Source: a virus (lineage: Duplodnaviria > Caudoviricetes). From it: 53,865 nucleotides of DNA. Both the position numbers and the translations under genes were made by a program. The notes beneath the pieces were generated by a model, which worked only from the letters and a program-made list of their open reading frames with translations, searched no databases and had not been told where the DNA came from. Where the stretch lies: positions 1-53,865 of IMG/VR virus record IMGVR_UViG_3300033513_000009, one strand, 5' to 3'. This document shows, piece after piece, positions 316 to 34,920 of this stretch (its first letter is position 1; every line of letters starts with the position of its first letter).

Positions 316-385
316 ATTGTAACATAAGAGAGGTAATTTGTCAAGCATATTTTTATTTGACAAATTATTATTGATAGGATATAAT
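316..385. promoter_or_regulatory. Divergent pair of sigma70-type promoters
   Basis: Minus: TTGACA(344-339)-17-TACAAT(321-316); plus: TTGACA(357-362)-17-TATAAT(380-385). Confidence 0.8.
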
Positions 386-410
386 AAAATAAAGTACAAC
401 TGGAGAGAAA

Positions 411-668
411 ATGTCTAATATCCTTAATTGCCTAGATATGGGTTTCTGCCCTAAGCTTTCTTACTACCAAAAACAAAAAGTGATGAAATTTTACCTAACA
501 AATATTCCAGAATTAAGCAAGGAGGATTTTCATAAAGATAGTCAGGAGAAATTAAAACAGCTAGGGATTAGGGCTTATTTCATTTCAACTTTTTCTTACT
601 GGGATTCCAGATTTGTGGTTGAAAAAAATGGAATTATTGTGAATCAGCTATATCTATGGGTTCATTGA
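411..668 (+). CDS. Hypothetical protein
   Basis: GGAGAG RBS and consensus promoter upstream. Confidence 0.6.
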   Translation: MSNILNCLDMGFCPKLSYYQKQKVMKFYLTNIPELSKEDFHKDSQEKLKQLGIRAYFISTFSYWDSRFVVEKNGIIVNQLYLWVH

Positions 669-676
669 GCATATTT

Positions 677-1105
677 TTAAGATTGGCTTGGGCGGTACAT
701 TGTTTCCATGAATTTATAGGTTTTGTTCTTGCCCTTATTCTCTATAAAATCAAATCGTTTATAGAATTCCTTTAATCTTGTTTTACTTCCTCCAAAATCA
801 GAAGAAGGAGAGAGCTTGACTGTATAGCCCATTTTGTCAGCATGTTCCACTAAATCTTCCATGAATTTAGTTCCAAGTCCCTTATTGCGTTCTTTCTTGG
901 GGATAATAATAGAGCTCAATGTAAGCATTTTGGTTGAATCATTTTGACCAATAAAAAAATCAATATTGGGATATTTGGCGGTAAGTATTTCATCAACCTG
1001 AGTTATATGGTCTTTACTAGCATTATCATTTCCTATCGGGGCTCCTTTTTGTAGTTCCGAAAGAGTATTAATTATTTTGTCAAGTTTTGCTATTAATAAT
1101 TCCAA
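677..1105 (-). CDS. GNAT-family acetyltransferase with shared leader
   Basis: Acetyl-CoA motif ERNKGLGTKFM and LKEFYKRFDF; N-terminus LDKIINTLSELQK-GAPIGNDNA. Confidence 0.8.
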   Translation of the reverse strand: MELLIAKLDKIINTLSELQKGAPIGNDNASKDHITQVDEILTAKYPNIDFFIGQNDSTKMLTLSSIIIPKKERNKGLGTKFMEDLVEHADKMGYTVKLSPSSDFGGSKTRLKEFYKRFDFIENKGKNKTYKFMETMYRPSQS

Positions 1106-1578
1106 AAAGATTTTCCACCGTCTGTACTGAATTTGATATTTTTAACTCCCAAATTTTCCAATACTTTTCTTTGACGATTCTTTAATTCATTTCTATCGCT
1201 TAATTCTGATGGTATGATACTTACCGCCCTTAAGCCATCAGAGGTTGCCCTAATAGAGAGATGCTGATATTTTCCCTTAAATTCGGAACTATTAGCTGTG
1301 AAATTAACCTCGTTTTCCCCATGTGTGCTGGATATTCCGCTTTTCCCTACATATACCGCATTGTGACCCATTAAACTAACAATAGTTGCTTTGTCAATAG
1401 GCTTCCCAATAATAGTACCTAATTTTTCTAGTGATTTTGAATCAATATTCTTGGTATTAACCACCTCACTTGCAATCACCGCTTCTTTCTTGGGATTTTT
1501 GCCACTACCAGCAGGATACCTGCCTGAACCTTCGCCGCCCTTTGCTAGTTCCAAATTATCTATTATTTTGTTTATCAT
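1093..1578 (-). CDS. Leader-bearing hypothetical (putative capsid cargo)
   Basis: MINKIIDNLELAK-GGEGSGRYPAGSG; overlaps neighbouring genes. Confidence 0.75.
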   Translation of the reverse strand: MINKIIDNLELAKGGEGSGRYPAGSGKNPKKEAVIASEVVNTKNIDSKSLEKLGTIIGKPIDKATIVSLMGHNAVYVGKSGISSTHGENEVNFTANSSEFKGKYQHLSIRATSDGLRAVSIIPSELSDRNELKNRQRKVLENLGVKNIKFSTDGGKSFWNY

Positions 1579-2318
1579 CTTGCTATCCCATAAAGTTCTT
1601 CTATCTTATCACTATCAACCCCATTTGCTTCGTAAAGCTGTTCAATCTCATCCCAGTTCTCATCCACATCATCCTGTAGTTCCGAATCGAATCTACACAT
1701 CCTAATTAATGTATCTATTTCTAGTTGCCCTGAAGCTATCTCATCTAACAAATCATCACCCGTATCAAATTTAGCAAGCATCCCAATTAATTTATTATTA
1801 GTTTCCTTGCGAGTATTATCATCCAAATTTTTGTTCTGCCATTTCAAAGCCTCAATTAGGTCTTTTTTGTCATTGGCATAGTTCTTTATTTTATCAAAAT
1901 TTCTATAAGTATCCCATTGTGTTAATAGGTCTTTTTTATCATTCCAGTCTTTTATATTTTTTAGTTTTGACTGAATATTATTGATTTCCTTGTTTACAAA
2001 TTCGGTAACATGTTTAATAGGGGCATTAGTGAATGCTAATTGCCCCATTTTTTTTGACCCATAGTTAGAAGCAAATGCTTGTTCTATTAATGAAGGTAAA
2101 CCACTTTGGTGAGCCATAACCCATTGATTACCATGGAAGGAATGACCCACTAAATCACCCTTATGAAGGAAGAAGATAATATCATCCAACTTCCTCATTT
2201 TGCGCGCTGAAGACAGGGCGATAGCGATAGCTTGCCTATGCGGATATTTTCCACTCCTCATAAGCTCTCTGATATTTTCAGAGATAACTTCCTTGCTACT
2301 ACCCTGTATCAACGGCAC
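1575..2318 (-). CDS. Putative head-associated protein with internal leader
   Basis: Phage-type N-terminus MPL..GSSKEVISENIRELM..QAIAIALS, then KLDDIIFFLHK-GDLVGHSFHGNQW. Confidence 0.7.
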   Translation of the reverse strand: MPLIQGSSKEVISENIRELMRSGKYPHRQAIAIALSSARKMRKLDDIIFFLHKGDLVGHSFHGNQWVMAHQSGLPSLIEQAFASNYGSKKMGQLAFTNAPIKHVTEFVNKEINNIQSKLKNIKDWNDKKDLLTQWDTYRNFDKIKNYANDKKDLIEALKWQNKNLDDNTRKETNNKLIGMLAKFDTGDDLLDEIASGQLEIDTLIRMCRFDSELQDDVDENWDEIEQLYEANGVDSDKIEELYGIAR

Positions 2319-3022
2319 TATCTAACGCGCCTAGCCCTTAGTATTCCAGCCCCGCCGATAGTACCAGCAGAGAACGCTGCACGACCAATCAGATATACTG
2401 TGGTTGTAGCCGCTAAACTCAATCTAACGGTTGGGGTATTCTGCGTGTAATTATCTGTATGGGTTGTCAATACAACAGGAATAGACATATATGTGTCCTG
2501 AGCCCCTAGTGTAGCAGTAGTTGTGGAAATACCAGCCGCCCAATCAGTTGTTGTCGCACCAGTGAGTACGAAATCAGCTATACCATCAACATCCCAGTCC
2601 CCCGCAGTCAGAGAAATGCTTGTTAAGTTAGCGGCAGTAGCTGTAGTTAGAGCTACTGGAGATGCTATCAGTACTTGAGCCGATACATACTCACCCAGCG
2701 TACCAGCAACGGCGTTATCATTAGTTCCCGTACCAACAATGAGTCCACTGGTTGAAGCTTCGGAACTAACAGAAGCACCATCACTAATAAGTCTAACTGT
2801 AGCGCCATTTGGAATAACTACCCCAGCGGCAGAAGCTGTTTTAACAGTAACAGTAAACCCACCTGCAACAACATTGTTTGTTACAAGAAATTCGTTAGGT
2901 ACTGATGGGACTATAACATTTATGTTAGCCGTTAAAACACCAGTAAACCTTAACCTATCATAAGCAAAATCACTTTCTGATACCGTGTAGCTTGTACCAG
3001 ACAAATAAATATTTGTATCCAT
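2318..3022 (-). CDS. Tail fibre-related structural protein
   Basis: Thr/Ala/Val-rich; LRFTGVLTANINVIVP module shared with the fibres at 7381-11254. Confidence 0.65.
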   Translation of the reverse strand: MDTNIYLSGTSYTVSESDFAYDRLRFTGVLTANINVIVPSVPNEFLVTNNVVAGGFTVTVKTASAAGVVIPNGATVRLISDGASVSSEASTSGLIVGTGTNDNAVAGTLGEYVSAQVLIASPVALTTATAANLTSISLTAGDWDVDGIADFVLTGATTTDWAAGISTTTATLGAQDTYMSIPVVLTTHTDNYTQNTPTVRLSLAATTTVYLIGRAAFSAGTIGGAGILRARRVR

Positions 3023-3069
3023 TTCTTTCCTTTTTTAATTTATCGTTCCTTCTTATTATAAGGGATAAA

Positions 3070-3774
3070 TTAGTCTTGAATAGATAAAATATGTTGTTGT
3101 GAAAATGATTTCTTGCAAAAATCGTAGGGGTAGATTACATGACATCCGTCGTATTCGCCTTTCTCATTTGGAAGATAGAATTTTGTGGCATTCCCAAAAC
3201 TATCATTCATTACGAATCCAACATCATTATAACCTATGACCCCATTAACATGTACAATAGTATCGCTTGTTCCGTTCGGACGTTTTCTGAAATAAAATCC
3301 AGCAGTAATGACAGGTATGTTCTTATCTATGCTTGCTTTGATTTGTTCAAAATTCACACCCTGAGTAAATGTGTCTTTAAGACCCAATTTTTCAAGATAC
3401 CATTTTAGCACAAAGGGATTATTCCTTGGTTTAATACAATCCTGCTGTAGTTTTTCATTTGTATTAAATGGAGCTAAGTACAGTGTCCACTTTTTCAAGT
3501 CATCATCCGATAGGGATTTGATTCTATTTGCCACTATACTATCAGGCATAGTTATGAAATGAGTATTCCACGCCTCTCGTGTAGCCAATTGCTGTGACAC
3601 ATAATCATCTAGCTGACCCACTCCATCCCATCCACAAAATTTATGAATATCTAATTTGAAATATTCACAAATCCATTGAATCACCATGGCTATTGTAGTC
3701 GCTTGACAAGTACCGAAAGGAGCGTCTTCGTTGTTCCTTTGATTATGCCATACTGCATTTAATGCTTTTTCCAT
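3070..3774 (-). CDS. C39-like cysteine peptidase, candidate endolysin
   Basis: TCQATTIAM (Cys), HVNGVIGY (His), NDSFG (Asp); next to holin-like genes. Confidence 0.7.
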   Translation of the reverse strand: MEKALNAVWHNQRNNEDAPFGTCQATTIAMVIQWICEYFKLDIHKFCGWDGVGQLDDYVSQQLATREAWNTHFITMPDSIVANRIKSLSDDDLKKWTLYLAPFNTNEKLQQDCIKPRNNPFVLKWYLEKLGLKDTFTQGVNFEQIKASIDKNIPVITAGFYFRKRPNGTSDTIVHVNGVIGYNDVGFVMNDSFGNATKFYLPNEKGEYDGCHVIYPYDFCKKSFSQQHILSIQD

Positions 3775-4247
3775 TATGCCTTATTAAATACTACTTTCTT
3801 CCCTTGAATTAAATCATCTAAATGAGACCTTATCTGATAATGGGGGTCATGGTAAACATCTTCAAGTTTTTCTTTATCTTTTTTCTCATCATAGCTCGTG
3901 CGGGTAAATCCCGGAGCTTCCGTTAGTCCTGCTCCCTCGTTGCCTAAATCAGTAGAGTACCTTAAATCACTGTTTGAACTATGTTGCTCCATAATATCTG
4001 CCATAATCTCATCATGGGATTTGCCCGATTCCATTGCTTCCTTAGCTTCTTGGATTCCTTCTGGGCTGAGTTGTAATTCAACTCTATTGCCGTATTCGTG
4101 AACAGAGGCATTGTTACTATTCCAGCTTTGAACTGGTTTGTCACCCCTTGCTTCTTTCTTTGGATTTTTGCCACTACCGGCGGGATAGCGACCCGAACCT
4201 ACTCCACCCTTTGCTAGTTCCAAATCAGCTATTATCTTGTTTATCAT
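3774..4247 (-). CDS. Leader-bearing hypothetical (putative capsid cargo)
   Basis: MINKIIADLELAK-GGVGSGRYPAGSGKNPKKEA, nearly identical to the first 33 aa of 1093-1578, with an unrelated C-terminus. Confidence 0.75.
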   Translation of the reverse strand: MINKIIADLELAKGGVGSGRYPAGSGKNPKKEARGDKPVQSWNSNNASVHEYGNRVELQLSPEGIQEAKEAMESGKSHDEIMADIMEQHSSNSDLRYSTDLGNEGAGLTEAPGFTRTSYDEKKDKEKLEDVYHDPHYQIRSHLDDLIQGKKVVFNKA

Positions 4248-30664: not shown

Positions 30665-30919
30665 CTATCCTCCTATTTTTCTTATACATGCTTCAATCAA
30701 TAAATATACCTTGCGATAGGCTTCGGCTTCAATTTGCGCATTCTCTATCTGTTTCCCAAGGAATTCTGTAGGAACCGCACTATATTTATTCATTAAATTT
30801 TCTTCTCTTTTTTCGACACTATCCAGCATTCGATTAATTTCTTTCAGGAGGTACATTAGTGCCCCTAAATCTTCTTTGTTACTATAATCAAACTCAAGAA
30901 AGTCTTGCAATATTTTCAT
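30665..30919 (-). CDS. Hypothetical protein
   Basis: Helical 84-aa ORF between TerL and portal. Confidence 0.55.
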   Translation of the reverse strand: MKILQDFLEFDYSNKEDLGALMYLLKEINRMLDSVEKREENLMNKYSAVPTEFLGKQIENAQIEAEAYRKVYLLIEACIRKIGG

Positions 30920-30940
30920 ATTATATCCTATAAATTAAAC

Positions 30941-33900
30941 TTAAATCTTAGCCTCTTCATTATTTTCCCTTTCTGCCTCTTTTTGGGTATTATAGAAGGT
31001 TGACCACATGCGAACACTGCCTAGATTAAAGAAATTTAAGGCTTGTGATAGGGAATCACAGTTGGAAACTAGTATATTATTGGCGAAATACACATGCTCT
31101 TTATCTACTGTTAGATTGTACACGTTTTCTCCAGTTTGCCCAATTGAACTTAGCGGTACAAGATTTGCTACAGGTTCGTTTTGTTTGCTTGGGATTTTCC
31201 TTCCGTATGGTTTTGAAGGTTGTCCCGCAATATTCACATTGTAATTCGATGTCATACATTCCCGTAGATTCCCTGTGCTTTCTCCCACATTGTGGTCGGC
31301 AATATTTGGGATTGTAATAGGAAGCCAAGAATTCTTTTTTACACCACAGGCATTCATGTTTCGATTGTTCTCGTTTTCCAAAGGAATGATTTTTGGCATG
31401 TTGGCGATGCCATTCCTTTCCTGCTTCTGATTTATGCCATTCCTTTGCGTCTTCCCTAATTTTTGCCAAATGCTCAATTTGTTTTTCTTTATCCTTAACA
31501 GGATGTTGCCTACGGTGTTCCCTAACTGATATACATTCCAGATTAGAGAAGTCGTTATTAAACCAATCCCCATCCTTATGGTGAATGTGATAGCCTTTTG
31601 GAACTGCTTGCCCTGCATAAAATTCCCAAATTGCAACATGAAGTCCTTTAGCACATCTTCTTCCTGCATTGGTTTTTGACTGGCTAAGATAATATCTTCC
31701 CGCCCCCATGAGGGTATATTTTGTTCCATTGAATATAATATTTTTCTGTATTTCCATCTCAAAAGCTCTCCCCAATTTAATTGTTTTGTTTCTTCAATTG
31801 TTACCTTTCCTAAATCCCTAAAACCATCCTTCGTGAAAACTGGATGATTTGGGGTTCCTGTTAATCCAATATTCGAAACTACATTATGTTTTCCCGTATA
31901 ACCACAAGTTAATACTCTACAAATTCCCGAAGGAGTGATAACCCAATCGTTTTTTGTGATTTCCTCGATAGGTTTGTTTCCGAACAATGTAGCTATTTGG
32001 GTTCCAGCCACGAAACAAATATCATCATTCTTATGTGTTCCCGCTGGCGAAAAGGCTAAGTGTTCCTCAATAATATCCACTGTCCACGCCTTGTCAGAAG
32101 GTACGTAGACCTGAGAGCCCCTGTAATAGCCGATTACTGTACTCACCCTATAGAGTTTATCAGGAGCTCCCTTAAATCCCCCTCCCTCTGCCTGAATATT
32201 GGTTGCCATTGGAATAGAAAGACCCGATTCTCGTAATTCCTGAATAAGCTGATGTCCACTTGACCTATCCTCTATAATAATATTAGTAGGCTGGTATTTA
32301 GCATTAAGGAGCAAGAGATTTTGTTTTAATTCATGGTATTGAACCTTCTCTCTGAACATATCCACGACATAATAATGACCCTTTGCTGTTAATCCCATTA
32401 CGAGGAGCACGCTATAATCATTATGCTGACCCGTTTTTACCGCCGTGTCGCATGAGATTATCAAGTCATCAAAGGCAGGGGTCTCGGAACTATCATAAAA
32501 CTGAAAATCATCCCTGTTAAATACCGCTCCATCAAGAGGGTTGGGAACCTGCATATACTGAGCGGCAAATCCAAAAGCCATATTTCTTTTAATGCGTTCA
32601 ACCTCTTCGGCAGGAAACCTTTCACCCCAGAATAAATCACCATCTTTTGCATATCCCTCAATCACTACCCCTTCTGGTAATTTGACTATACGTTCATCGT
32701 AAGTTATAGGAAGGACAATACCGTCATATTGGTCTTTTATTTGAGCTATGATGTCATCTTCATGGAGCCTCTGCATTATCAACCAACGACTTCCAATAGT
32801 TTGCGAGTTAAGACGAGAATAAAGAGTTACATTAAACCATTCATTAGCTGAATTTAGTTTCGTTATACTACTAGCATCTTGAGGTTTGAGGTAGTCGTCG
32901 ATTATTATGCAATTGTGGACGAGTATTTCATTTGCAAAGAAGTTGTGATTTCCTTCCACTTGGATGTCATAGACCCTGACCCCTCTATCGCGTATTGGGA
33001 CAACCATTTGTACGGTGTCTCCATCGAATGATGATGAATTGTATGACATATTAAGCAAATTGCCACCAAGTTCTCCGCCACATTGTTCTTCGGATTTTCG
33101 TCTATATGGTGAATTATCATATTGGAATGTCTCATCTTTCCATACCTGTTCCTTTTTATCGAAAAGGTTTGAGGTTTGTGACAAACTACACAGGCTTCCT
33201 TCTCCCTTTCCAATATCAAGGGGCGCATCTCGTAAAACCATTTGGAGTAACTTCTTCCCTCCTTGTAATGAGAATTCCCAGTTCCAATCATTCTCTTTGA
33301 ATGAGCCTTGTTTTTGCATATCATCGAGCAATACATACTTCTTGTACTCTTCCCCATAAATTCTTTTTGACAAAAGTGACAATTGATTTGCTTCAATTTT
33401 TTCCTGCTCTTGGGCGATTTCAGACGACATTCTATCGAACAAAATCTCATCGTCTTTTTGGGTACCATACTCGAACATATCTCGCATTTTCGACGATTTT
33501 TGAAAGAATGATGTTTTTCCGAGCATGTTGCGGAGCAATAAAAATCCTTTCGTCCCTTCTTTATTGATTTTTCCACATTGAACTTGCTTCTCCTGAATTC
33601 CTTGTGACACAGGGAGCATTCCAGTACGAATACAATCTTCCTCGCTTTTTGATAACATGTCCAACATATTGTTCTGCCTTCCGATTTTTTCCCCTGACAT
33701 ATTGGGCACCCCTCCGTTGCTGATAATAAGCTTATCTCCGTTCCCAAGAAGTTGTGCTTGTGTATATCCAAATCCTGTTGTGTATATACGATGTTTTCCC
33801 GTAGCCCTGATATAACGCCCTTTATTTGTGGTGATTTCATGAATATCATTGCTAACTGAAACCTTCGTTGCAACAATATTTCTCCATTCTGTTTGTTCTG

Positions 33901-34501
33901 TCTCATGATTATATGATAATACTCTTGGCATTTCCTTTAAATTTACTATCTCCTCAATAGTCATATTTCCCCATTCAGTAGCAATCATTGTCTCCCCCAC
34001 CAGACAATCAGCACCTGAGCCGGTTATTGCCGCAGCAGTCGAGGTAGCGATACGTTCTCCACCCTGATTGTTGAAGAACTTAACCTTTTCGTTCTGAGCG
34101 CCGTGTAGTTGGTAAATCTCCCCAAACCATCTCTGGTATTTCTCACTCTGGATAATAACCCTAGATTTGACCGAAAGCTCGTTTGCTAGTGTATCGGTGT
34201 GAGAGGCTACAATGAATTTCAAATATGGATAATGTACCCACGCCCATCCAACCGACATGATTGAAAATATATAAGATTTCATACAACGGGGAGGGATATT
34301 CACATAATGGTCGCGGGTTTTTGGTAGTCTCTGCCCAACCCTGAGAATATCTTTTTGAAATTCATCGCATAGGACTTTGATATGCCAGTTATCCGAAAGA
34401 GGTGTACCCGGTTCCAGTACTTCCCAAAATTCCTTTATAAAATGATAATAACTGCGACGAGCTCTTTCACGTCGTACCAACTCATTAGGCGGTATAAACA
34501 T
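30941..34501 (-). CDS. terL: Terminase large subunit with two inteins (about 502 aa after splicing)
   Basis: NIPPRCMKS Walker A; spliced GAD-CIIIDD Walker B; MQRLHEDD; SCDTA, IEDRSSG and DDI-CDS nuclease motifs. Confidence 0.95.
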   Translation of the reverse strand: MFIPPNELVRRERARRSYYHFIKEFWEVLEPGTPLSDNWHIKVLCDEFQKDILRVGQRLPKTRDHYVNIPPRCMKSYIFSIMSVGWAWVHYPYLKFIVASHTDTLANELSVKSRVIIQSEKYQRWFGEIYQLHGAQNEKVKFFNNQGGERIATSTAAAITGSGADCLVGETMIATEWGNMTIEEIVNLKEMPRVLSYNHETEQTEWRNIVATKVSVSNDIHEITTNKGRYIRATGKHRIYTTGFGYTQAQLLGNGDKLIISNGGVPNMSGEKIGRQNNMLDMLSKSEEDCIRTGMLPVSQGIQEKQVQCGKINKEGTKGFLLLRNMLGKTSFFQKSSKMRDMFEYGTQKDDEILFDRMSSEIAQEQEKIEANQLSLLSKRIYGEEYKKYVLLDDMQKQGSFKENDWNWEFSLQGGKKLLQMVLRDAPLDIGKGEGSLCSLSQTSNLFDKKEQVWKDETFQYDNSPYRRKSEEQCGGELGGNLLNMSYNSSSFDGDTVQMVVPIRDRGVRVYDIQVEGNHNFFANEILVHNCIIIDDYLKPQDASSITKLNSANEWFNVTLYSRLNSQTIGSRWLIMQRLHEDDIIAQIKDQYDGIVLPITYDERIVKLPEGVVIEGYAKDGDLFWGERFPAEEVERIKRNMAFGFAAQYMQVPNPLDGAVFNRDDFQFYDSSETPAFDDLIISCDTAVKTGQHNDYSVLLVMGLTAKGHYYVVDMFREKVQYHELKQNLLLLNAKYQPTNIIIEDRSSGHQLIQELRESGLSIPMATNIQAEGGGFKGAPDKLYRVSTVIGYYRGSQVYVPSDKAWTVDIIEEHLAFSPAGTHKNDDICFVAGTQIATLFGNKPIEEITKNDWVITPSGICRVLTCGYTGKHNVVSNIGLTGTPNHPVFTKDGFRDLGKVTIEETKQLNWGELLRWKYRKILYSMEQNIPSWGREDIILASQKPMQEEDVLKDFMLQFGNFMQGKQFQKAITFTIRMGIGLITTSLIWNVYQLGNTVGNILLRIKKNKLSIWQKLGKTQRNGINQKQERNGIANMPKIIPLENENNRNMNACGVKKNSWLPITIPNIADHNVGESTGNLRECMTSNYNVNIAGQPSKPYGRKIPSKQNEPVANLVPLSSIGQTGENVYNLTVDKEHVYFANNILVSNCDSLSQALNFFNLGSVRMWSTFYNTQKEAERENNEEAKI
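31061..32017 (-). mobile_element. Intein 2 in the TerL nuclease domain (319 aa)
   Basis: Starts CFVAGTQIAT, block B TPNHPVF, ends YNLTV..HVYFANNILVSN|C. Confidence 0.9.
31101..31757 (-). CDS. HNH homing endonuclease in an alternate frame inside intein 2
   Basis: LHVAIWE..HIHHKDGDWFNNDFSNLECI..H plus CxxC fingers; GGGGAGAG RBS 8 nt before ATG 31757. Confidence 0.85.
   Translation of the reverse strand: MEIQKNIIFNGTKYTLMGAGRYYLSQSKTNAGRRCAKGLHVAIWEFYAGQAVPKGYHIHHKDGDWFNNDFSNLECISVREHRRQHPVKDKEKQIEHLAKIREDAKEWHKSEAGKEWHRQHAKNHSFGKREQSKHECLWCKKEFLASYYNPKYCRPQCGRKHRESTGMYDIELQCEYCGTTFKTIRKENPKQTKRTCSKSCTAKFNWANWRKRVQSNSR
32905..33906 (-). CDS. Zinc-finger HNH homing endonuclease in an alternate frame inside intein 1 (start uncertain)
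   Basis: Multiple CxxC/YCSxxC repeats then CVVC..IHHIDENPKNNVAENLVAICLICH. Confidence 0.85.
   Translation of the reverse strand: MRQNKQNGEILLQRRFQLAMIFMKSPQIKGVISGLRENIVYTQQDLDIHKHNFLGTEISLLSATEGCPICQGKKSEGRTICWTCYQKARKIVFVLECSLCHKEFRRSKFNVEKSIKKGRKDFYCSATCSEKHHSFKNRRKCEICSSMVPKKTMRFCSIECRLKSPKSRKKLKQINCHFCQKEFMGKSTRSMYCSMICKNKAHSKRMIGTGNSHYKEGRSYSKWFYEMRPLILEREKEACVVCHKPQTFSIKRNRYGKMRHSNMIIHHIDENPKNNVAENLVAICLICHTIHHHSMETPYKWLSQYAIEGSGSMTSKWKEITTSLQMKYSSTIA
32912..34006 (-). mobile_element. Intein 1 at the TerL Walker B (365 aa)
   Basis: Starts CLVGETMIAT, block B ATGKHRIYT, ends VYDIQVEGNHNFFANEILVHN|C. Confidence 0.93.
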
Positions 34502-34670
34502 AGTATCTCCCCTTAGACCCGCATGTATCGGTTGGTTTTATACCTAGATTCAATATCGCCACCTTATCCTCTCTTTCTTCGGTACATTTATGTATTTCAC
34601 CTTTTATCCTTATGCAATACTCTATCTCTCCGATTTTGTCACAATGTTTGCAATTATTACACTGTTGCAT
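34485..34670 (-). CDS. Small Cys-rich protein
   Basis: CNNCKHC..C..C..CG; overlaps the TerL start. Confidence 0.55.
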   Translation of the reverse strand: MQQCNNCKHCDKIGEIEYCIRIKGEIHKCTEEREDKVAILNLGIKPTDTCGSKGRYYVYTA

Positions 34671-34920
34671 ATTTCCTCTTCATAGAAGCTTTATATGCTG
34701 GACGACAGTGCCTATGAACAACCGTTTTTTCGTCAGTAATATCAACATCAAGGGCATCTCCACAATGCTTGCACAATTTTGCCACTTCTTCGGAATCCCA
34801 TTTAGCCCATAATTTACGAGAACAATCATCACAACGACTATTAGCCATGGCAAGAATATCAACCCATTCACCACAACTGCATTGACCTAGCACCGTTTTC
34901 CTCACTATGCGGTAATTCAC
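34657..34920 (-). CDS. Small zinc-ribbon protein
   Basis: CSCG, CDDC, CKHC, HRHC. Confidence 0.55.
   Translation of the reverse strand: MNYRIVRKTVLGQCSCGEWVDILAMANSRCDDCSRKLWAKWDSEEVAKLCKHCGDALDVDITDEKTVVHRHCRPAYKASMKRKYATV

Follow-up and report, generated by a model that had tools for sequence, protein, structure and literature searches.

An HNH open reading frame (ORF) on the same strand as an intein, nested in another frame of it, was described in 2015 from the large terminase subunit (TerL) gene of brucellaphages (Tb ORF02/ORF03; PMC4422536, Virol J 2015), in a paper whose accessible part holds no comparative or selection analysis. A report on actinophages presented inteins with a +2-frame endonuclease, TerL being among their hosts, and with an in-frame middle of no recognisable structure; in its accessible part the design is called rare, a free-standing endonuclease gene invading an intein is proposed as the origin, the enzyme is assigned to endonuclease VII (IPR004211, core residues 1-67), and no ribosome-binding site is discussed (bioRxiv 10.1101/2025.01.02.630785). 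Here we analyse the IMG/VR virus record IMGVR_UViG_3300033513_000009 (Duplodnaviria; Caudoviricetes) over its whole length of 53,865 bases, hereafter termed the window, which has an estimated completeness of 46%. Its TerL gene carries two inteins, each holding one long same-strand ORF in a different frame, and our subject is the second of them, intein 2, together with the HNH endonuclease gene overprinted on it. The principle of the overprinted endonuclease is already published; the design found in intein 2 is far commoner than reported.

The brucellaphage case resembles the window in having an out-of-frame HNH in a TerL intein, and its ORF is a direct relative of the one in intein 1, at +1, but it differs from intein 2 in its Walker-B site, its +1 offset and its order of modules, fingers first and HNH after. 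The actinophage inteins agree with intein 2 in concept and in the +2 frame, whereas their enzyme is assigned to endonuclease VII and that of the window to HNH_3. In the fractured genes of Dassa 2009, an intein and an independently translated endonuclease form one mobile unit, the 3′ end of the endonuclease gene running, in another frame, 6-69 bp into the downstream intein part at 15 loci, and in the accessible part of that paper such genes occur only with GIY-YIG or Vsr-like endonucleases (PMC2677866). In contrast, the intein frame of the window is uninterrupted, encodes one polypeptide predicted to splice in cis, and is combined with an HNH enzyme. A hidden out-of-frame HNH overprinted on an insertion in the ShiLan methylase, the host frame being open, is described in the accessible part of Arsenault et al. 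2025 (PMC11855218); that insertion is without splicing domains and presumably stays in the protein, whereas in intein 2 a complete Hint fold surrounds the HNH. I-HmuI and other His-Me finger homing endonucleases have the Pfam HNH_3 core in common with the window HNH, although I-HmuI is intron-encoded and has other DNA-binding modules in place of the helical hairpin and two zinc ribbons of the window protein. As for the insertion site, all mycobacteriophage TerL intein sites given in the accessible part of PMC5050341 lie in the ATPase domain, so that the site of intein 2, in the nuclease motif, does not belong to that set. In a literature search outside which subscription journals lay, no paper was found that names an intein in the phages phiCD119, phiCDHM19, TJE1 or Highwayman, all of which return below, nor any on an intein with an overlapping homing endonuclease and an 'alternative reading frame'.

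A Hint domain around a read-through HNH gene

Judged from its structural model, intein 2 belongs to class 1 and has a Hint domain of the mini-intein type, about 95 residues from the N-terminal end and about 25 from the C-terminal one, that is predicted to splice, and the roughly 200 residues between them are the read-through of a separate HNH gene in the +2 frame, not an endonuclease domain. The original prediction had placed this intein at 31061-32017, ending VSN within the nuclease motif DDI/CDS (slashes denote intein junctions here and below), with an HNH ORF in the +2/-1 frame that starts at ATG 31757, stops at 31101 inside the intein, has GGGGAGAG 8 nt before its start, and carries its HNH core first and its fingers after. 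The ORF list and the sequence agree on each of these points, GGGGAGAG being found at 31773..31766. The coordinates are collected in Table 1.

The splicing half of this description is carried by the following observations. The nucleophiles are provided by Cys1 (codon 32017..32015) and Cys+1 (codon 31060..31058); C1, H58 and N319 are invariant across 41 aligned relatives, and T55 of block B (TPNH) is nearly so. The penultimate residue is Ser instead of His, SN being the commonest ending among the boundaries listed for the relatives and HN also frequent. In the intein-frame model, residues 1-95 and 296-319 together form a complete Hint fold, with the gp41-1 intein as best match (Z 16.2, root-mean-square deviation (rmsd) 2.4, 110 aligned), followed by the Mtu RecA mini-intein (Z 15.7), Npu DnaB (Z 15.0) and NrdJ-1 (Z 14.8). 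Although gp41-1 (as a fused crystal construct) and NrdJ-1 are split inteins, the two marks of a split gene, an N-intein ended by a stop and a C-intein with a start of its own, are lacking in the window, while both are found in a metagenomic locus (L060) described below. We infer splicing; TerL is an essential protein, and its nuclease motif is interrupted by the insert.

The middle is of another nature. Pfam recognises Terminase_6C, the RNaseH-like nuclease domain, at precursor residues 684-827 (E 4.6e-9) and the start of Hint_2 at residues 828-863, and finds no known domain in residues 864-1147; neither Pfam nor the model gives intein 2 the intein-frame endonuclease domain of a canonical bifunctional intein. 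The mean pLDDT (predicted score in the local distance difference test) of the model is 67.5, with residues 1-90 and 300-319 at 85-97 and residues 99-293, the shadow of the HNH gene, mostly below 50, except for a long helix at 122-189 scoring 60-89. That stretch (window 31400-31640) is the hydrophobic shadow of the HNH core (KAITFTIRMGIGLITTSLIWNV), with pLDDT reaching 89, and its motif recurs in relatives as FIIKTxIxxITTL because it mirrors the HNH-frame codons for GYHIHHKD...NN. The HNH stop codon falls within the C-terminal splicing part, 40 nt ahead of the end of intein 2.

The nested ORF itself can be read from TTG 31775 (224 aa) or from ATG 31757 (218 aa) to the TAA at 31103..31101, and its offset of +2 follows from (34501-31757) mod 3 = 2. 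Pfam HNH_3 (PF13392) matches residues 44-89 of the 224-aa form (E 3.5e-13; 49.4 bits against a cut-off of 24.8), and the Cys pairs come later. In an alignment of 41 HNH sequences, H59, H60, N68, N72 and H81, which we take to be the catalytic residues, are invariant, and the Cys columns of the zinc ribbons are invariant or nearly so; a conserved EWHxSEEGxxWH motif lies in a helical hairpin of the model. The structure predicted by AF2 with the 41 aligned sequences has a mean pLDDT of 93.9. I-HmuI is the top solved match of this model in both fold searches, with modest scores (Foldseek E 0.43; VIA Z 7.0, rmsd 6.4, 108 aligned), followed in VIA by I-PpoI at Z 4.8 and by all others at 4.3 or below. 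The beta-beta-alpha-metal fold of solved His-Me finger enzymes is a tentative assignment for this protein.

Table 1. Features of intein 2, its overprinted HNH gene and the surrounding TerL gene (window coordinates).
Feature	Position	Strand	Remarks
Intein 2	31061..32017	minus	319 aa, precursor residues 829-1147; nuclease motif ...HKNDDI/CFVAGTQ...NNILVSN/CDSLSQ
N-terminal splicing part of intein 2	31733..32017	minus	residues ~1-95, including block B (TPNH)
Intein-frame read-through ('shadow') of HNH gene	31133..31732	minus	intein residues ~96-295
C-terminal splicing part of intein 2	31061..31132	minus	residues 296-319, ending VSN; pLDDT 75-95
HNH endonuclease gene in intein 2	31101..31757	minus	218 aa from ATG 31757, TAA 31103..31101; +2 of TerL
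Shine-Dalgarno-like GGGGAGAG	31766..31773	minus	8-nt spacer, then ATG 31757; embedded in intein W-G-E codons
HNH_3 catalytic core (GYHIHHKDGDWFNNDFSNLECISVREHRRQH)	31509..31646	minus	Pfam HNH_3
Two Cys4-type zinc-ribbon modules of HNH protein	31158..31352	minus	C136/C139/C153/C157 and C174/C177/C196/C200
TerL precursor ORF	30941..34501	minus	1186 aa, two inteins, exteins total 502 aa
Intein 1	32912..34006	minus	365 aa, precursor residues 166-530; CLVGETM...EILVHN/CIIIDD, Walker-B site
Intein 1 overprinted endonuclease ORF	32905..33906	minus	333 aa, +1 of TerL; zinc ribbons first, HNH last

Conservation and selection in two overlapping frames

A tblastn search of the window HNH against 50,697 phage records matched 25 of them. 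Four phages with an intact annotated TerL coding sequence hold the HNH inside it at +2, namely phiCDHM19, Highwayman, TJE1 and Rhodobacteraceae phage LS06-2018-MD07, with Clostridioides, Acinetobacter, Tetrasphaera and Rhodobacteraceae as hosts, and each has a Cys...(S/H)N intein at the same TerL nuclease motif, although the annotations give only 'terminase large subunit' and no HNH. The older record phiCD119 contains the same HNH in a TerL whose frame is broken. Among the matches listed (the 25 records, and the best 60 of 455 for the HNH of TJE1) there is no PhagesDB phage other than TJE1, and a partial overlap between the endonuclease VII-like family of the actinophage preprint and the family of the window HNH is possible. 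A weak HNH match (24% identity, E 4e-8) was also seen in Vibrio phages of the 1.238/1.245 group (NC_055736.1, NC_055735.1), where it falls under features named 'hedgehog/hint domain protein' and 'terminase large subunit' and may represent a further example of nesting or splitting.

A profile scan of IMG/VR matched at least 586 stretches, of which at least 564 were confirmed as relatives, and the counts given here refer to the best 80. Of these, 73 have the HNH nested at +2 within a long ORF of the same strand and none has it at +1, the other 7 not being nested. Every enclosing ORF has the C-terminal intein piece (73/73) and nearly every one the N-terminal piece (69/73), at the same TerL site, the insertion following the TerL motif HDDx or DNH in the relatives. 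With two nested loci cut by contig ends, the delimited inteins number 72 including the window (283-329 aa, 56 distinct nucleotide sequences), and the offset is +2 in all 72. The overprinted arrangement has been retained across deep divergence. The intein 2 family has many members, from phages of several bacterial phyla, and the +2 overprint is the usual condition within it and no exception. In two of its loci (L019 and L021, whose enclosing ORFs measure 1140 and 1194 aa) TerL contains another large insertion, without an alternative-frame ORF of 120 aa or more; these insertions may be inteins with an in-frame or decayed endonuclease.

That two long frames are open at once had been taken in the original prediction as a sign against an assembly error, and resampling upholds this. 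When the HNH protein was kept constant and its 218 codons were drawn anew according to the codon usage of three genes nearby, 39 of 20000 draws left the TerL frame without a stop; 97 of 20000 did so when the HNH gene's own synonymous codons were permuted. Conversely, 0 of 20000 draws that preserved the intein-frame peptide gave an open HNH frame. In the window the overlap is closed in its third frame, and over the 56 distinct loci stops number 0 in the intein frame, against a median of 21 and a minimum of 10 in the third. The suspicion that an assembly or sequencing indel threw a normal in-frame HNH intein out of frame, for which there is the older phiCD119 record with its broken TerL frames and otherwise only a prior doubt, would demand two compensating indels to leave both frames open over 654 nt, and it meets the same offset in all delimited inteins from many independent assemblies; together with the resampling and the nesting in 73 of 80 this led us to reject it, and we give it practically no credence. 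Two compensating programmed frameshifts, which would yield an in-frame HNH intein, were rejected as well, because the TerL frame would then not need to stay open.

The substitution pattern shows on which of the two frames selection acts. The sample consisted of 14 of the 55 edges of a minimum-spanning tree, those with 70-99.9% nucleotide identity, comprising 2945 codons. Differences by HNH codon position number 153/106/273 (chi-square about 84, 2 df, from edges that are not fully independent). Position 3 of the HNH codon is position 2 of the intein frame, and therefore the overlap changes in the manner of an HNH gene, not of a protein read in the intein frame. The N-terminal splicing part shows the usual third-position bias in the intein frame, with 9/6/26 differences over 8 edges. 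Likewise, the mean identity to the window is 39.9% for the HNH reading versus 28.3% for the intein-frame reading of the same DNA, the former being higher in 54 of 54 comparisons. The HNH frame is under purifying selection, and the intein frame over the overlap is constrained essentially only against stops.

These results bear directly on the idea that the HNH ORF is an untranslated, decaying relic and the intein effectively a mini-intein with a junk middle. Such a fate is discussed in the accessible part of the actinophage preprint (bioRxiv 10.1101/2025.01.02.630785), and one relative has a stop inside the matched HNH region. A relic would, however, hardly display purifying selection, an invariant set of His, Asn and zinc Cys residues in 41 sequences, a model of such high confidence and a frame open in 55 of the 56 distinct loci at about 40% identity, and we consider this account very improbable. 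The relative with the stop (L034:2206-2859) is the only nested one of its kind; its open frame begins 20 codons into the match, and its HNH may be in decay or may have its start at another place.

Proposed internal initiation of the HNH gene

How the HNH would be made from a message devoted to TerL is suggested by the sequence before its start. The duplex of GGGGAGAG with a generic anti-Shine-Dalgarno (anti-SD) sequence has an energy of -8.5 kcal/mol. By a criterion of -6 kcal/mol or better, a start preceded by an SD-like site exists in 35 of the 55 distinct relatives, compared with 9.5% of the 2240 control windows picked by the same procedure; the loci without one have A-rich leaders. A pattern TCAyTAAAGGAGtTG...ATG is common to many loci, so that the codons of the intein spell the SD. 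Moreover, the HNH frame opens only 12 codons before ATG 31757 in the window, and the distance from the upstream stop to the start of the match has a median of 12 codons across the 56 loci. No X XXY YYZ heptamer occurs in the permitted stretch of the window, while one is present in 8 of 54 other loci. From the excess of SD-like sites, the short upstream opening and the lack of a heptamer in the window, internal initiation is the best reading, and translation of the HNH from ATG 31757 with GGGGAGAG as its ribosome-binding site is plausible on sequence grounds.

The alternative is programmed -1 frameshifting, by which the HNH would appear as a fusion of N-extein, N-intein and HNH, with no initiation of its own. 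The HNH frame is indeed the -1 frame, the canonical heptamer does occur in those 8 relatives, and the splicing domain aids DNA recognition in some inteins. Yet the window is without the heptamer, and its HNH frame opens only 12 codons before the ATG, while in 21 of the 56 loci the opening lies 1-9 codons before the start of the match; in addition, SD-like sites stand before the start far more often than in controls, and the free-standing and split members of the family have starts of their own. We therefore regard frameshifting as improbable and continue with internal initiation. A consensus scan for internal promoters over 30800..34800 gave 17 promoter-like sites against 11.2 +/- 3.1 in shuffles; two of the 17 are minus-strand sites located upstream of the HNH start (at 32097..32070 and 31912..31883), and the result is not distinguishable from chance.

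Mobility, related forms and the second overprinted family

We think it likely that intein and HNH together make up a composite homing element, in which the intein would rescue TerL by splicing and the separately initiated HNH would mobilise it. The HNH would be translated from its own Shine-Dalgarno site on the TerL mRNA and would cut or nick intein-less TerL alleles near the insertion site during co-infection; repair would then copy the intein together with the HNH, and protein splicing would restore TerL, the shadow peptide being tolerated as a loop between the two Hint halves.

Relatives with and without the unit exist. The TerL of Clostridioides phage CD1801 is a precise intein-less allele of that of phiCDHM19, with flanks 91.3% identical, reading HDDA/PDALTG where phiCDHM19 reads HDDA-intein-CDATTG; the junction aligns without a gap over 120 nt, and CD1801 has no HNH at its TerL locus. 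The same holds for the Walker-B site of two metagenomic TerLs that both carry the nuclease-site intein with its +2 HNH: one (L022, ORF 344-3799) has a Walker-B-site intein with a +1 HNH, and thus carries both overprinted designs as the window does, and the other (L024, 1349-3808) is without it, the flanks being identical at 162/175 and 623/639 residues (about 93-97%). Intein and HNH are present or absent as one precise unit in these relatives.

Other members of the family are free-standing. In L040 an intein-less TerL is followed by a free-standing HNH, and likewise in the group L054/L056-L058 (of which L054 and L056 were inspected); in L051 the HNH lies upstream of terS. Annotated free-standing relatives are found between TerL and portal in CL2, PAE1 and EauM-23 and before terS in BP10. 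The last of these, Acinetobacter phage BP10 (L092; 44,443 bp, Obolenskvirus), has a TerL of 469 aa, while Acinetobacter phage Highwayman (L003; 45,046 bp, unclassified) has one of 760 aa with the HNH nested in its intein; members of one endonuclease family are thus placed differently in these two Acinetobacter phages, whose genomes are similar in size.

Their neighbourhood raises the question of whether the HNH is a terminase-associated packaging enzyme that has lodged in the TerL gene and not a homing enzyme. In work of Kala and colleagues from 2014, terminase-associated HNH proteins were reportedly needed for genome cutting and packaging, and the free-standing relatives just named, in CL2, PAE1, EauM-23, BP10 and L051, adjoin terminase genes. 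Free-standing homing endonucleases, however, typically also sit beside their target gene. A packaging role was raised for the HNH of the intein 1 family in the accessible part of PMC4422536. Against it stand the gain and loss of intein plus HNH as a precise unit between TerL alleles of about 91% identity, CD1801 having no HNH at the locus at all, and the assignment of the enzyme to HNH_3, with a homing enzyme, I-HmuI, as its best solved structural match. We hold a packaging enzyme to be unlikely, though less so than frameshifting, and retain the homing element as our explanation.

Several observations nevertheless weigh against homing or temper it. Expression, splicing and cleavage are inferred from sequence for every member of the family, and the lineage of the window has no known empty allele, a pattern scan of IMG/VR with the 298-aa middle extein having found no close relative of its TerL. 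The free-standing HNH relatives beside terminase genes would also fit a role in DNA packaging, and the structural match between the HNH model and I-HmuI is modest. By the criterion used, 20 of the 55 relatives are without an SD-like site. Finally, shadow residues 141-180 are predicted as helix with pLDDT 76-89, and the read-through may not be wholly structureless.

A split form of the element was found as well. In L060:850-3775, the ORF of N-extein and N-intein ends at TGA 2419-2421, an unrelated ORF of 114 aa (2632-2973) follows and then a free HNH (2977-3609), and the ORF of C-intein and C-extein starts at ATG 3485 behind AGAAGGAA, overlapping the 3′ end of the HNH at the same relative frame. 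This is exactly the layout of the fractured genes of Dassa 2009, but with an HNH, and on its sequence L060 is a candidate HNH-type fractured terminase.

The first intein of the window (Pfam Intein_splicing at precursor residues 179-530, E 2.2e-20) belongs to another family of overprinted inteins. Its ORF has a weak HNH_3 match at residues 255-282 (E 2e-5; 24.6 bits, just under the cut-off of 24.8), preceded by Cys pairs. A tblastn search with the 333-aa ORF matched 45 phage records, 41 from Brucella, 2 from Gordonia phage Clown, 1 from Synechococcus and 1 from Ralstonia. The annotation of Brucella phage Tb gives the HNH as ORF03 (1227..1913), which lies within TerL ORF02 (404..2950) at +1, and the window ORF is 32.9% identical to it over 229 aa (E 5e-24). 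In all four loci examined (Tb, Clown and two from IMG/VR) the HNH is nested at +1, at the site G..D/C...HN/C.IIDDP. The two inteins of the window are alike only at their ends.

The original prediction had gone further in seeing two distinct endonucleases in one gene and, from their different frames, a recurring strategy. The first point stands for the permuted module order and the frames, but the two proteins are not wholly unrelated, having in common, in permuted order, a zinc-ribbon module (30% over 79 aa, E 4e-5) and a weak match of their cores. Recurrence, in turn, is borne out in that two families are overprinted in different frames (73 of 80 at +2, 4 of 4 at +1, and both in L022), but not as many independent inventions, since the offset is fixed within each family because of descent from one ancestor per family.

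As for the remainder of the locus, the ORF list has the TerL frame uninterrupted from 34501 to 30944. Directly upstream of TerL, at 34485-34920 on the minus strand, lies a pair of short ORFs rich in Cys (of 61 and 87 aa, containing CxxC pairs), at the position where the small terminase subunit would be expected.

To the published principle, the present analysis adds a large multi-phylum family with the +2 overprint as its normal state, an HNH frame under selection, a Shine-Dalgarno site in the codons of the intein, and three coexisting forms. By a narrow preference, we take overprinting to be a stable and ancient third architecture of inteins and not an uncommon, passing by-product of invasion by endonucleases, shared by two families, in which the shadow is meaningless and kept free of stops only for the sake of TerL, the enzyme is initiated separately from an SD within intein codons, and free-standing, overprinted and fractured forms make up a series. 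If so, the cross-phylum family at the TerL nuclease site and the family at the Walker-B site would both have an 'endonuclease region' that is mere read-through, and the split L060 together with the free-standing HNH genes beside intein-less TerLs would be a living series of the free-standing, overprinted and fractured states.

Gene callers omit ORFs nested in a longer ORF on the same strand, so that such endonucleases are invisible in most annotations, and overprinted inteins would be scored as endonuclease-less. Nesting in 73 of the best 80 among at least 564 IMG/VR relatives, against the 'rare' of the actinophage preprint, suggests that surveys of intein mobility undercount active elements. 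A Hint domain of about 120 residues that tolerates an arbitrary insert of about 200 residues may interest intein engineering, and the finding of all three forms, free-standing, overprinted and split, in a single HNH family has a bearing on how inteins come by their endonucleases and on the origin of split inteins.

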